A stretch of 64,000 bases of DNA from a virus. The DNA is taken from the IMG/VR virus record IMGVR_UViG_3300005393_000370, one strand, 5' to 3'. Positions 34,108 to 60,299 of the stretch are shown in pieces. Position 1 is the stretch's first letter, and every line of letters starts with the position of its first letter. Position numbers and translations under genes: made by a program. The notes under the pieces are model-generated. The model saw only the letters and a program-made list of their open reading frames with translations, was not told where the DNA came from and made no database searches.

Positions 34108-34147
34108 CCACTCTCGATTTGAGCCCGTTTGGCAATCTCTCACGGGA
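34108..34147 (+). promoter_or_regulatory. bipartite 40-bp element, copy 1
   Basis: CCACTCTCGATTTGAGCCCGTTTGGCAATCTCTCACGGGA, ending about 30 nt before the MTase start. Confidence 0.75.
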
Positions 34148-34177
34148 AGAACTAACGCATCTTTTATCCCGAACCGT

Positions 34178-35494
34178 ATGCACCCCTTCTTCGACCACGA
34201 CAACCTGACGCTCTATTGCGGCGATCTGCGGCAAGTGCTGCCGACGTTGCCGGAGAGCAGTGTGGACTTCGTGGTCACGGACCCGCCCTACGGCCTGGAC
34301 TTCATGGAGAAGGATTGGGACCACGACGTTCCCGGCCCGGAGTATTGGCGGGCGATCTACCGTGTGGCAAAGCCTGGTGCGCTGCTGCTGGCCTTCGGCG
34401 GCACGCGGACCTATCACCGGTTGACCTGCGCGATCGAGGATGCCGGCTGGGAGATTCGGGACAGCTTGTTGCGGCTTTTCTCGCAGGACGCGCGTTTATA
34501 CGACTTATGGGAGAGCCTCGACGGCTATCAGCGCAAGCTACTCTCGGACCTGATTGCGCCTGGGCAACTGCTCACCTGGTTGCAGGGGCAAGGTTTCCCC
34601 AAGGCTGCCGACATCGGCAAGATGATCGACAAGGCCAAAGGAGCCAAGCGCCAAGTCGTCGGCACGAAGGTTGGCCTGCCAGGCTACTCCCTGGCTGACA
34701 ACGGCCGAACCAACGACATCTACGGCGACCTACACAATCCGCCAGCCGAGTGCGCCATCACCGCGCCGGCCACGCCCGAGGCCGCCCGATGGACCGGCTG
34801 GGCCAATGCCCTGAAACCGGCCTTCGAGCCGGTGACGCTGGCGATGAAGCCGATGGATGGCACCGTCGTCCACAACGCTCTAACGCATGGTGTGGCGGGC
34901 ATGAACATCGACGCCTGCCGCATCGGCGATAACCCTGGCTACAAGTACAAAGCTGACCGGAACGGCACCACCTTTCATGGCAAGCAGGGTGAGCGGATCA
35001 AGCAGACGGCCGCGAAGAAGGGCGCTCAGTTCATCGAGTCCACGAAGGGTCGTTGGCCGGCAAACCTGCTGCTGGATGAAGAGGCGGCCGATCAGTTAGA
35101 TGCCCACACCGGGACGCTGACAAGTGGAACCGGCACCGTCAGGTCCAAGGCCGGCGATGGCTACCACGGCGGCATGGGAAAGGCCAGAGATGCCCAAGTT
35201 GCCTATGGCGATTCCGGCGGCGCTAGTCGGTTCTTCTACACGGGCAAGGCCACGACGAAAGAGCGGGGAGAAGGCAACGACCACCCGACCGTCAAGCCCG
35301 TGAAGCTGATGGAATACCTGCTCAAGCTGCTCTCCACGCCGGACGGTGGCGTGATCCTCGATCCTTTCGCCGGCAGCGGCTCGACGCTGCTGGCCGCCCA
35401 ACGCCTCGGCCGTCGTTGCATCGGCGTGGAGCTGACCGAGCACAACTGCAACATCATCCGCAATCGCCTGATCGGAGGATCGCATGTCGGTTGA
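34178..35494 (+). CDS. N6-adenine/N4-cytosine DNA methyltransferase, beta class
   Basis: VVTDPPYG near the N-terminus; HPTVKP and ILDPFAGSGST near the C-terminus. Confidence 0.92.
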   Translation: MHPFFDHDNLTLYCGDLRQVLPTLPESSVDFVVTDPPYGLDFMEKDWDHDVPGPEYWRAIYRVAKPGALLLAFGGTRTYHRLTCAIEDAGWEIRDSLLRLFSQDARLYDLWESLDGYQRKLLSDLIAPGQLLTWLQGQGFPKAADIGKMIDKAKGAKRQVVGTKVGLPGYSLADNGRTNDIYGDLHNPPAECAITAPATPEAARWTGWANALKPAFEPVTLAMKPMDGTVVHNALTHGVAGMNIDACRIGDNPGYKYKADRNGTTFHGKQGERIKQTAAKKGAQFIESTKGRWPANLLLDEEAADQLDAHTGTLTSGTGTVRSKAGDGYHGGMGKARDAQVAYGDSGGASRFFYTGKATTKERGEGNDHPTVKPVKLMEYLLKLLSTPDGGVILDPFAGSGSTLLAAQRLGRRCIGVELTEHNCNIIRNRLIGGSHVG

Positions 35495-37523
35495 GACGGT
35501 CAAGATGCAATACCACACGTCCAAAGGGACGCCTGTTCGCATAACCGTTGTGTTGGAGAAGCGCGACGGTCGCATCTACTTCTGGGAAGGCCGTCCCGGC
35601 ACGAAGACGAAGTATGAGTTGTCGCATGAAATCAAGGCGATGTACGGGGCGCACTTCCACGGCTACGACGACGAAGGCCCCTACGCCAAGAAAAAAGTCT
35701 GGTCGGTGGATGACTGTCAGCGCAACCGTATGCAGATCGGCTACCTGGCCGGCGAAGACGTGTATGCCTGGTTCGATCGGCCGTGCCAGCACTTCGGCTA
35801 TCGGCCGCTGGCCCGCGGCGGCGTCCCGCAGGTTCTCATGCCGCATCAGGCAGATATGTCGGACGCCGGCCTGACGTATCACTACCAGATATTCGGCGCG
35901 GAAATGGGCACGGGCAAGACCCTGGCTGCCCAGATGGTGATTGAGAAGTCCAGCGTCAACCTCGTGTGGTGGGTTGGTCCGAAGACCAGCATTCCGAACA
36001 TCAAGCGTGAGTTCAAGCTGTGGGGCTTCCCCTTCGACCGCATCCAGATCGAATTCTTCACCTACGAAGGGCTGGTCCGGGTCATGGACGAGTGGGACGG
36101 CTCGCAACCGCTTCCGCAATTCCTCGTGGCGGACGAGTCCAGCCGTTGTAAGAACGACACCTCGCAACGGTCAAAAGCCTGCCAGAAACTTGCCGACCTG
36201 ATCCGCGCCGAGTACGGCTACGACGGCTACGTGATTCTCATGTCGGGTACGCCGTCGCCGAAAACGCCGTGCGATTGGTGGAGTCAGTGTGAGATCGCTT
36301 GGCCGGGTTTCCTCAGAGAGGGGAGCCGCCGGGCGATGGAAGAACGGTTGGCTTTCATGGTCACGGCCGAATACGACGCCGGCAAGTTCAAGAAGCGGAT
36401 CGGCTGGAAAGACAACGAGGACAAGTGCGCCCAGTGCGGAGCCACGCGCGAGGAAGGCCCGCACGAATTGGACGGCGTGACGGACCCCGAAGAGTACCAT
36501 CCGTTCGAGGCCAGCAGAAACGAAGTGGCCTACCTCTACGAACGGCTCAAGGGCCTGGTGGTCGTCAAGCACAAGAAGGACTGCTTGCACCTGCCCGAAA
36601 AACGATACCGCAGGATCATCTGCAAGCCTACAGCGAGCGTGCTGCGTGTGGCGCAATCCATCGCCACGAACCCAGCCTACAACGCCGTGACCGGCATGAC
36701 CTTGCTGCGGGAACTGAGCGATGGATTCCAGTACCGCGAAGTGCAGGACGGCACGACGAAATGCACGCATTGCGTGGATGGCACGGTCGCCGAGTGGACG
36801 GACCCGGAAGACCGCGAGGCCCGTTACCAGGCGATTGACCTGCTGGACCCGGCCCTACAGGCCCGTCTCGTGAAAGAGACGGTCCCTTGCCCACTGTGCA
36901 ATGGAAAGCGGGAAGTCCCCAAGATGGTGCGCGTCACTCGGGAAGTGCCCTGCCCGAAGGAAGCCGCGCTCAAGATGCTGCTGGACGAGAACGAGGAAGT
37001 CGGGCGGCTGGTGGTTTTCGCCGGCTTCACCGGCTCTGTGGATCGCATCGTCAAGCTGTGTCTCAAGGAAAAGTGGGACGTGGTGCGCTGCGATCAGGGC
37101 AACTTCCAAGTGCTTGCAGCCAAGAGCGACAGCCCGGAGGGCGTCGTTGTGACCAGCGAGGAGCCGCTGGACTACTGGGCCAATCTGGAAGGGCACAACA
37201 AGGTCGTCTTCGTTGCCAACCCCGAGTCGGGCGGCATGAGCCTGACATTGGTGGAAGCCCGCATGGCGGTGTACTGGTCCAACAGTTGGAAGCCGGAATA
37301 CCGCGTGCAAAGCGAAGATCGCATCCACCGCAAGGGCATGGACGAGAACCTGGGCTGCACGATTGTCGATCTGGTCCATCTGCCCAGCGACGACCGCGTG
37401 CTGAGCGTCATTCGCGCCAACCGGAAGCTGGAGCTAATGACGATGGGCGAACTCCTCCAAGGCGTCGATTGGAAGGATGCCGGCGAAGAAGGCGAGATGC
37501 TTGTGGAGGAGATCGCAGCGTGA
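35484..37523 (+). CDS. SNF2-family SF2 helicase with zinc-finger insertions
   Basis: AEMGTGKT, LVADES, SGTP, SGGMSLTL and QSEDRIHRKG; CAQC, CTHC and CPLC inserts. Confidence 0.9.
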   Translation: MSVETVKMQYHTSKGTPVRITVVLEKRDGRIYFWEGRPGTKTKYELSHEIKAMYGAHFHGYDDEGPYAKKKVWSVDDCQRNRMQIGYLAGEDVYAWFDRPCQHFGYRPLARGGVPQVLMPHQADMSDAGLTYHYQIFGAEMGTGKTLAAQMVIEKSSVNLVWWVGPKTSIPNIKREFKLWGFPFDRIQIEFFTYEGLVRVMDEWDGSQPLPQFLVADESSRCKNDTSQRSKACQKLADLIRAEYGYDGYVILMSGTPSPKTPCDWWSQCEIAWPGFLREGSRRAMEERLAFMVTAEYDAGKFKKRIGWKDNEDKCAQCGATREEGPHELDGVTDPEEYHPFEASRNEVAYLYERLKGLVVVKHKKDCLHLPEKRYRRIICKPTASVLRVAQSIATNPAYNAVTGMTLLRELSDGFQYREVQDGTTKCTHCVDGTVAEWTDPEDREARYQAIDLLDPALQARLVKETVPCPLCNGKREVPKMVRVTREVPCPKEAALKMLLDENEEVGRLVVFAGFTGSVDRIVKLCLKEKWDVVRCDQGNFQVLAAKSDSPEGVVVTSEEPLDYWANLEGHNKVVFVANPESGGMSLTLVEARMAVYWSNSWKPEYRVQSEDRIHRKGMDENLGCTIVDLVHLPSDDRVLSVIRANRKLELMTMGELLQGVDWKDAGEEGEMLVEEIAA

Positions 37524-59659: not shown

Positions 59660-59937
59660 CCTGGCTATCACACGCTCCGTCTGCATGGCCTGAACAAGAA
59701 GGATGCCCATCTCCCGGAGTGCTACTGATGTTTCACGACGGCAACGATTGCGACGACGGAAGCTTGCCGCTCAGCGATCCAGGCCAGTTCCTCGGTCATG
59801 CCGAAACACACGCCCGGCAGGAAACCGAGCGGGAAGTGGCCGCCCGCCTGGCGGTCCTGGAGTTGTTGGACCCTTCCCAGAGACGGCCGACGCCGAAGCG
59901 GAATATCCTCAACCACGTCGCCTTCATCGACCTATAG
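59656..59937 (+). CDS. hypothetical protein
   Basis: 93 aa, in operon. Confidence 0.45.
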   Translation: MTWLSHAPSAWPEQEGCPSPGVLLMFHDGNDCDDGSLPLSDPGQFLGHAETHARQETEREVAARLAVLELLDPSQRRPTPKRNILNHVAFIDL

Positions 59938-59939
59938 CC

Positions 59940-60299
59940 ATGCTAGCCGTCAGGATCGAACTTCATTCGGCCGTCACCGGCGAGATCAAGACGCTTGCAA
60001 CCGGCAAGATCATCAACACCGGGACAGGCAGCTCCACCCAGGGCAACTACCGCATTGAGTTGCGGGACGCTGCCGGACGCCTCTGGAAAACAGGCCATAT
60101 CGAAGGGTTCCCCCGCAAACGATTGTTCGCATGGGATTTACTGTACCGCGCCCTGAAAAGACTTGTCGGCACACGAAATCCCACTCTCGATTTGCCTCCG
60201 GTTGGCAATCTCTCACGGGAGAGACAACCAACAACCAGCGAGGAACCTGACGATGATCGCCCAACTGCCGAACCTGAACGCCATCCTGAAGCGCCATGA
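59940..60299 (+). CDS. hypothetical protein
   Basis: MLAVRIEL...GNYRIEL...HIEGFPRKRLFAWDLLYRAL; 3' end runs over element copy 4. Confidence 0.55.
   Translation: MLAVRIELHSAVTGEIKTLATGKIINTGTGSSTQGNYRIELRDAAGRLWKTGHIEGFPRKRLFAWDLLYRALKRLVGTRNPTLDLPPVGNLSRERQPTTSEEPDDDRPTAEPERHPEAP
60181..60220 (+). promoter_or_regulatory. bipartite 40-bp element, copy 4
   Basis: CCACTCTCGATTTGCCTCCGGTTGGCAATCTCTCACGGGA, 36/40 identical to copy 1. Confidence 0.75.

Follow-up and report, generated by a model that had tools for sequence, protein, structure and literature searches.

A bipartite element with lineage-specific versions, probably read by a phage sigma factor, in temperate phages of Planctomycetota

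What reads a two-part sequence that recurs four times before genes of a phage replication and DNA-modification region, and is the reader the sigma-70-like protein encoded in that same region? The question is raised by the virus record IMGVR_UViG_3300005393_000370, of which we analysed one strand of a stretch of 64,000 nucleotides (nt), hereafter the window. Here we describe the element, which consists of ACTCTCGA (box 1) and GCAATCTCTCA(C/A)GGGA (box 2) held 14 bases apart, together with its counterparts in related phages and the sigma-70-family gene at 47638–48312. We consider it likely that the four copies are phage-class promoters read by the host core RNA polymerase carrying the product of that gene. 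A phage sigma factor serving private promoters is a textbook mechanism, which appears here in a little-studied phage group and with a version of the signal for each lineage. Almost nothing is known of gene control in the phages of Planctomycetota, the present group is without a cultured member, and our literature searches found no paper on the sigma factors or promoters of Planctomycete phages.

Four copies of a rigidly spaced bipartite element

A pattern scan of the window recovered exactly four perfect matches to ACTCTCGA-N14-GCAATCTCTCA(C/A)GGGA, all on the plus strand. None is expected by chance, and 100 shuffled sequences yielded 0 matches. When up to three mismatches were tolerated across the whole window, the N14 pattern gave no match beyond the four, and a looser scan (up to four mismatches, spacers of 12–16 nt) added one poor match, inside a gene, at 34540. 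Taken singly, neither box 1 nor box 2 is over-represented in the window; the signal thus lies in the combination of both. The original prediction, which was made from the letters of the window, had reported four plus-strand copies with identical spacing and a variable spacer, and this description stands, except for the length of the spacer. Read directly from the sequence, the spacer comprises 14 bases of variable composition at all four sites, rather than the 13 first given, and an N13 version of the pattern has 0 matches in the window even with three mismatches. Likewise, the positions first assigned to the copies (34108, 43309, 48870 and 60181) each fall 2 nt upstream of the true start of box 1.

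Copy 1 (34110–34147, plus strand; box 1 at 34110–34117, spacer at 34118–34131 and box 2 at 34132–34147) is intergenic, beginning 2 nt past the stop codon of the open reading frame (ORF) 33442–34107, and faces a DNA methyltransferase gene with its ATG at 34178. Copy 2 (43311–43348, plus strand) lies within the 3′ end of a ParB-like gene (42525–43391) and precedes a small ORF (ATG at 43360) in front of polA; the unit that it heads contains both polA and the sigma gene. Copy 3 (48872–48909, plus strand) is placed with box 1 over the last codons and the stop of an NT5C-like gene and with box 2 in the intergenic space, ahead of an ATP-dependent ligase gene (ATG at 48948). This site, right behind the sigma and NT5C genes, is the most widely retained among relatives. 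Copy 4 (60183–60220, plus strand) is probably intergenic and precedes a 106-amino-acid ORF (ATG at 60253). The ORF that runs across it (59703–60299) is probably non-coding, because its third-position GC content is 0.53, against 0.72–0.90 in the genuine genes of the window. From the final GGGA to the ATG of the next long ORF, we measured 30, 11, 38 and 32 nt for copies 1 to 4, respectively, in agreement with the 11–38 nt originally noted. Overlap with upstream coding sequence had been claimed for three copies; it applies to copy 2 and to box 1 of copy 3, and not to copies 1 and 4, for which the ORFs running across them in the motif frame have third-position GC contents of 0.48–0.53. The boxes are nucleotide-identical, and the spacers variable, whether a copy falls in one reading frame, in another or outside genes.

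Two further features of these leader regions were observed. The starts of the methyltransferase (34178) and ligase (48948) genes have no recognisable Shine–Dalgarno sequence, and those at 43360 and 60253 are accompanied by AAGGA and GAGGA, respectively. In addition, a leader resembling CTAAC-N5-TCTTTTGAGG occurs downstream of the copy-3 and copy-1 sites (48912–48932 and 34150–34170 in the window), and a similar leader is retained in lineages with a different box 2, at about 11286–11310 in locus L004 and behind the motif copy in loci L024, L029 and L030.

Orthologous sites carry lineage-specific versions

The motif search in relatives that the original prediction had recommended led to lineage-specific versions of the element at the same genome positions. 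The relatives are IMG/VR contigs, some of them classed as proviruses, and contigs from genomes of Planctomycetota (Thermoguttaceae, Planctomycetales and Planctomycetia). In four IMG/VR relatives, whose sigma proteins are 56–58% identical to that of the window, the element takes the form ACTCCAGA-N14-nCGATCTCCCAGCGGAG, always on the gene strand and at sites syntenic with the four of the window; four copies are present in three of these records and three in the shortest fragment. From their upstream flanks, the sites are orthologous to those of the window, and each of the four orthologous sites departs from its window counterpart by one identical set of six substitutions (motif positions 5, 6, 25, 31, 34 and 35). 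Within the window's own clade, by contrast, the boxes are constant and it is the spacers and flanks that vary. The candidate promoters of the L004 clade carry the box pair ACTCCAGA/CGATCTCCCA.

Further versions came from a blind pair scan, in which blocks of 8 nt and 18 nt were matched with 14 unscored bases between them. The scan recovered the known copies and yielded ACTCTAAC-N14-CTGAT[A/G]TAGG in L026, ACTCTAAC-N14-TTGATGTGGCAGAGGGAG in L027 and ACTCTAAT-N14-TTGATTTCATTGTAGGGA in L034, as well as private versions at the polA-anchored loci L045, L047, L054, L056, L057, L059 and L061. No pair above noise was found at distant loci that have no detectable sigma gene, and L033 gave no bipartite motif above noise. 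In L033, a prophage-like contig from Thermoguttaceae, the scan was dominated by a direct repeat at 17725–18420 that is perfect and has a period of 340 nt.

We tabulated 27 sites from nine lineages. The spacer measures 14 nt in 26 of them and 15 nt in the remaining one, a site of L026, and throughout the table the element points at the next gene from close upstream. Assignable start codons cluster at about +47 to +50 or about +68 to +73, counted from base 1 of the motif, and in the +47 to +50 class the GGAG of the motif stands at Shine–Dalgarno distance from the start. Co-orientation with the downstream genes, which holds for all four copies in the window, extends to the copies in relatives. 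In a prophage of the L034 lineage, which has eight copies, one copy lies on the minus strand of a divergent intergenic region and heads a minus-strand gene.

In most lineages the two boxes are unlike each other, and box sequences differ even among phage lineages from a single bacterial family, Thermoguttaceae. Some lineages have a −35-like CTAAC, or CGTA at the −10 position. The motif classes track the sigma lineages, and the three lineages that share ACTCCAGA have in common an S-R...R-M pattern in the predicted recognition helix of sigma region 4.

A divergent sigma factor as the proposed reader

The proposed reader of the four sites is encoded on the plus strand at 47638–48312, the only sigma-like ORF in the window. 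The gene probably starts with the GTG at 47638, which is preceded by GGAGGA, and specifies a protein of 224 amino acids in which a sigma-2 and a sigma-4 domain are joined by a linker. When a profile built from 18 homologues was compared with solved structures, region 2 (query residues of about 18–130) matched SigF (1l0o_C, 7e-11) as well as SigK, RpoS and SigA, and region 4 (profile positions 175–223) matched FliA at 6e-5. The sigma-70 superfamily model TIGR02937 matches 18 of the 18 family members, and Sigma70_r4 and r4_2 match five. NCBIfam models of sporulation sigma factors and RpoS align with residues 15–95 at scores under their cut-offs, and the PHROG match of the window protein is weak only. 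An AlphaFold model (pLDDT 77) comprises two helical domains separated by a disordered linker, with helices at residues 174–184, 189–195 and 200–223. All 50 matches listed by Foldseek against the PDB are sigma factors, with probabilities of about 0.77 to 1.0; the TM-scores are low (0.22–0.40) because the arrangement of the domains differs. By profile and predicted fold, the product of 47638–48312 is a divergent two-domain member of the sigma-70 family. No anti-sigma factor was recognised among the neighbours of the gene.

The homologue family comprises at least 72 clusters at 90% identity, and its genes occupy a conserved order: Metallophos, ParB, a small ORF, polA, two ORFs, sigma, NT5C (in some cases) and ligase. 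Of 80 polA-anchored loci, 57 have a detected sigma gene, and many of the remaining 23 break off shortly past polA. Among the sigma factors of cultured phages there is no detectable relative; the best tblastn match in GenBank phages (E of 5e-3) falls on an unannotated gut phage contig. Across loci L023–L027, polA is 70–95% identical between lineages whose adjoining sigma proteins share 39–72%. Judged by these identities, the sigma gene changes at several times the rate of the replication enzyme beside it (polA, 43742–46387).

A proposed promoter class for the replication and modification region

To read two boxes that differ from each other and stand at a rigid distance, a factor needs two distinct modules for recognising DNA, such as regions 4 and 2 of a sigma factor. 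In the model that we favour, the four elements would be middle-class promoters, with region 4 contacting box 1 (ACTCTCGA) as the −35 element and region 2 contacting the 5′ part of box 2 (approximately CAATCTC, motif positions 24–30) as the −10 element. The distance from base 1 of box 1 to base 1 of the putative −10 hexamer is 23 nt, the same as that between the starts of the two hexamers in TTGACA-N17-TATAAT. Transcription would begin in the G run, at about positions 35–37, which for the four copies correspond to about 34144–34146, 43345–43347, 48906–48908 and 60217–60219. Transcripts would thus start with GGGAG..., which would act as a ribosome-binding site at sites with a start codon a short way downstream. 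A switch made in concert at every site, along with the fast evolution of the sigma gene, fits the co-evolution of a sigma factor with its promoters. That the partner is the product of 47638–48312 in particular is a step that we infer, since sigma and boxes do not covary cleanly at the level of individual domains.

Each of the four promoters would lead one of a succession of blocks within the replication and DNA-modification region. As the sigma gene sits in the block downstream of copy 2, positive feedback is implied: once made, the sigma factor would reinforce its own synthesis. Its first expression would depend on a different, host-read promoter, probably located in the divergent region near 31.5 kb.

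Several observations weigh against this assignment. Loci L024, L025, L029 and L030 yielded, by eye and within 10 kb of the sigma gene, a single copy only, behind that gene, and the pair scan found nothing above noise in L077 and L079. Covariation between the recognition helix of region 4 and box 1 is at best suggestive, and the sigma-4 domains of L004 and L029 are 75% identical yet accompany a different box 1. The window protein scores under every curated sigma threshold (21.9 bits for TIGR02937, with a cut-off of 42.9) and has no Pfam match at an E value of 0.1. Furthermore, the putative −10 element is not AT-rich in all lineages, and conservation within lineages runs for about 18–20 nt through box 2. 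This is more than a −10 element needs, which indicates that something in addition to it is selected there.

On balance, the private promoter class read by a phage sigma factor that was originally proposed gains support from computational tests that concern the identity of the sigma protein, the geometry of the sites, their orientation towards genes, the existence of lineage variants and the restriction of the motif to the prophage contig in two host genomes. The sigma-70-type gene on which the proposal leaned is borne out by the profile, the TIGR02937 matches of its family and the fold search. The accompanying idea of a DNA-metabolism regulon fits the genes downstream of copies 1–3.

Alternative readers of the element

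A concerted, lineage-specific change proves only that a lineage-specific trans-acting factor exists, and that factor might be a different phage DNA-binding protein. Such a protein could be an activator acting with a host sigma factor, or a repressor bound at operators or at roadblocks resembling 'stoperators', and it would then be the co-evolving partner. We regard this as unlikely, albeit as the best of the alternatives. There are candidates for the role, as the phage encodes two ParB-like proteins and an exonuclease bearing a helix-turn-helix, and there is a precedent in the cluster A mycobacteriophages, in which oriented, asymmetric repressor sites co-vary with the repressor. For ParB proteins symmetric binding sites are the norm, which argues against a ParB as the binder. 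More generally, unlike boxes around a rigid, variable 14-nt spacer demand two DNA-reading modules, a hallmark of sigma factors. An activator would also leave box 2 to a host sigma factor as its −10 element, and for this box 2 is too different between phages of related hosts. Moreover, the region offers no other promoter candidates.

A repressor is also brought to mind by the palindrome TCTCTC-ACGG-GAGAGA, which overlies the predicted transcription start in copies 3 and 4. At copy 3 (48898–48913) it covers the 3′ portion of box 2 together with the predicted start region, and at copy 4 (60209–60224) it extends imperfectly to TTGG...CCAA. As the original prediction had it, the strong palindrome belongs to these two copies alone; copies 1 and 2 show the symmetry weakly and most other lineages lack it, which counts against this alternative. 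At the site orthologous to copy 4, a palindrome is retained in the related clade, though of another sequence, so this feature may be a separate operator.

Less probable still, in our estimate, is that the element acts in RNA on read-through transcripts, as a processing site, as a structure for translational coupling or for pairing with or against the Shine–Dalgarno sequence, or as a nut-like antitermination signal with a boxA-like box 1 and a hairpin. This would suit copies that share the strand of the genes and keep a fixed spacing to the start codons, and in the +47 to +50 class the purine run GGGAG could serve as a Shine–Dalgarno sequence. The pyrimidine-rich box 1 is able to pair with that run in some copies, and copies 3 and 4 could form a hairpin of 6–7 base pairs. 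However, copies 1 and 2 of the window have neither the hairpin nor the pairing between box 1 and the purine run. No common fold emerged either: for eight copies from two clades, the minimum-free-energy z-scores range from +1.76 to −1.69 and the structures differ. An RNA function would, in addition, leave two rigidly spaced, unpaired, lineage-specific boxes unexplained. A structured RNA element was accordingly rejected, as the folds differ among copies and no Rfam family matches in the window.

That a host alternative sigma factor reads the sites, for instance one of the many extracytoplasmic function (ECF) sigma factors of Planctomycetes, and that the phage sigma has other targets, was the alternative named originally; CTAAC and CGTA in some lineages do recall ECF promoters, but we think it very improbable, because the motif of the lineage is confined to the prophage contig in two host genomes (G005, 6 Mb; G006, 3.8 Mb), the boxes differ among phages of Thermoguttaceae and switch in concert within a phage, and the replication region showed no other repeated signal for the phage sigma to read. 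A search of two host genomes with a highly degenerate core pattern was uninformative.

Other identities were tried and set aside. A consensus scan of 31.0–50.9 kb for a housekeeping sigma-70 promoter (TTGACA-N17-TATAAT) had no match at the three copies in this range, copy 4 (60183) lying outside it. The putative −10 sequence CAATCT shares with TATAAT, at best, the A at position 2 and the T at position 6. It had been remarked at the outset that the boxes do not resemble TTGACA/TATAAT. A sigma-54 promoter (GG-N10-GC; TGGCAC-N5-TTGC) was excluded on similar grounds: TGGCAA is present in three copies and GTGCAA in copy 2, with no GC at −12. The consensus of ECF (group 4) promoters has AAC in its −35 element and CGT in its −10 element. 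The motif of the window has neither, and its sigma protein scores below the cut-off of the ECF model. Assigning box 2 as the −35 element, or TAGAG as the −10 element, could not be reconciled, on inspection, with the conservation of box 1 or with starts at +47. Finally, all copies are open in one frame (TL[D/E]....GNLSRE), as a coding repeat would be, yet only at copy 2 does that frame belong to a real gene. The other ORFs in the motif frame have third-position GC contents of 0.47–0.53, the boxes are nucleotide-identical and include rare AT-ending codons, and the substitutions of the related clade are non-conservative if read as protein. On this codon and frame evidence, the coding-repeat reading was rejected.

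Genome context

The window is a phage genome with a GC content of 62% and belongs to a temperate, siphovirus-like phage of Planctomycetota. The plus strand carries the terminase, portal, major head protein, tape measure and tail genes up to about 26 kb. A primase gene (28709–31489) follows within a short minus-strand block, and a long plus-strand replication and modification region extends from 31.5 kb. This region includes two ParB-like genes, a helicase, an exonuclease, polA, the ligase and at least five DNA methyltransferase genes; those at 34178, 50087, 50932, 53870 and 58506 belong to several families, and three lie downstream of motif copy 3. As in the window, the terminase is located upstream of the replication block in provirus G003. 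A megablast search of 43.0–50.2 kb against GenBank phages gave no match, and tblastn found only remote matches there for polA and sigma.

Between 31.0 and 50.9 kb, the consensus scan detected no sigma-70-like promoter on the plus strand, and this part of the replication region has no convincing intrinsic terminators. Where the minus-strand primase block and a plus-strand ParB-like gene diverge, a long inverted repeat with an AT-rich core occupies 31472–31547. We regard it as a candidate early promoter/operator or a candidate origin region, and as the likely starting point of host-dependent transcription.

A different repeat, resembling CCGTCAGGAGACGTGCATCAAGGGCAGGTCGCTCCG, occurs at 556–591 and 6965–6996, before the thioredoxin and terminase genes and before the major capsid gene, respectively. 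It bears no relation to the present element, and other signals thus seem to operate in the late region. No phage RNA polymerase was recognised among the scanned ORFs of the window, in which two large ORFs of the virion region, 19512–22073 (853 amino acids) and 22489–25392 (967 amino acids), matched no family, PHROG included. The former contains internal repeats of about 245 nt. Near a gene with a SEC-C motif, three relatives carry a plus-strand, proline-rich gene built of 15-nt tandem repeats resembling CCGCCGAGGCC (18300–18750 in L024, 20226–20360 in L025 and 15459–15558 in L027).

Implications

The analysis yields a testable transcription map, with four predicted promoters, one sigma factor and a predicted start point, which applies to a phage family widespread in metagenomes and in prophages of Thermoguttaceae and other Planctomycete genomes. 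Its main value lies in a clean comparative series of lineage-specific promoter versions and in a concerted switch of specificity. As the versions keep one fixed geometry, they form a comparative set for the co-evolution of sigma and promoter specificity, and they may also supply orthogonal expression parts.

We also put forward, tentatively and with more doubt than confidence, that the family holds mutually orthogonal sigma–promoter pairs, and that related temperate phages sharing Planctomycete hosts have been selected to switch the specificity of the sigma factor and of all its promoters together. If this were so, the sigma factor of one phage would be unable to switch on a co-resident relative, or to be hijacked by it. 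In effect, this would be immunity-group diversification at the level of transcription, and it would also account for the fast evolution of the sigma gene in comparison with the adjacent polymerase gene and for the concerted switch of six bases at four sites.

Comparison with known systems

The Bacillus phage SPO1 runs a cascade of sigma factors, with gp28 for middle and gp33/34 for late genes, each with private −35 and −10 consensus sequences. The system proposed here would resemble it in that a phage sigma factor with a private consensus defines a temporal class of genes. It differs in that the window presents one sigma gene and one motif class, its late region seeming to have other, unrelated signals. 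Among other pairs of phage sigma factors and private promoters, two of them in Planctomycete phages, the motifs are different (for instance GCGACA-N18-GTC, or one containing CACTCAGGCAACG) and occur in 10–20 copies.

With the ECF (group 4) sigma factors, the phage family shares the combination of a sigma-2 and a sigma-4 domain in about 200 amino acids, rigidly spaced bipartite promoters and many distinct sigma–promoter pairs (PMC7826278). Unlike those proteins, the sigma factor of the window has its best sequence matches, over region 2, among the group 3 sporulation-type factors SigF, SigG and SigK. It also falls under the threshold of the sigma70-ECF model, and the AAC signature of the −35 element appears in some lineages only. 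The ECF classification itself states that it does not capture phage sigma factors (PMC7826278).

The closest parallel is offered by phages 7-11 and phiEco32. In phage 7-11, gp47 reads bipartite late promoters with the consensus GTAAtg-N16-aCTA (PMC8948821; PMC4331800), and these promoters lie at genome positions like those of the dissimilar promoters of phiEco32 gp36 (PMC8948821). The study that predicted the 7-11 promoters inferred the sigma gene to lie downstream of such promoters (PMC4331800). The present case, which is predicted from sequence, differs in its Planctomycetota host, in the temperate nature of the phages, in its boxes and in the genes served, the putative promoters standing before replication and modification genes and not before late ones; sequence searches found no relationship between the window sigma and any GenBank phage sigma factor. 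In both cases, related phages keep similar positions of the known or putative promoters with dissimilar sequences, and we propose that here too, as with gp47 and gp36, a divergent phage protein of the sigma-70 family redirects the host core RNA polymerase to a few sharply conserved promoters.

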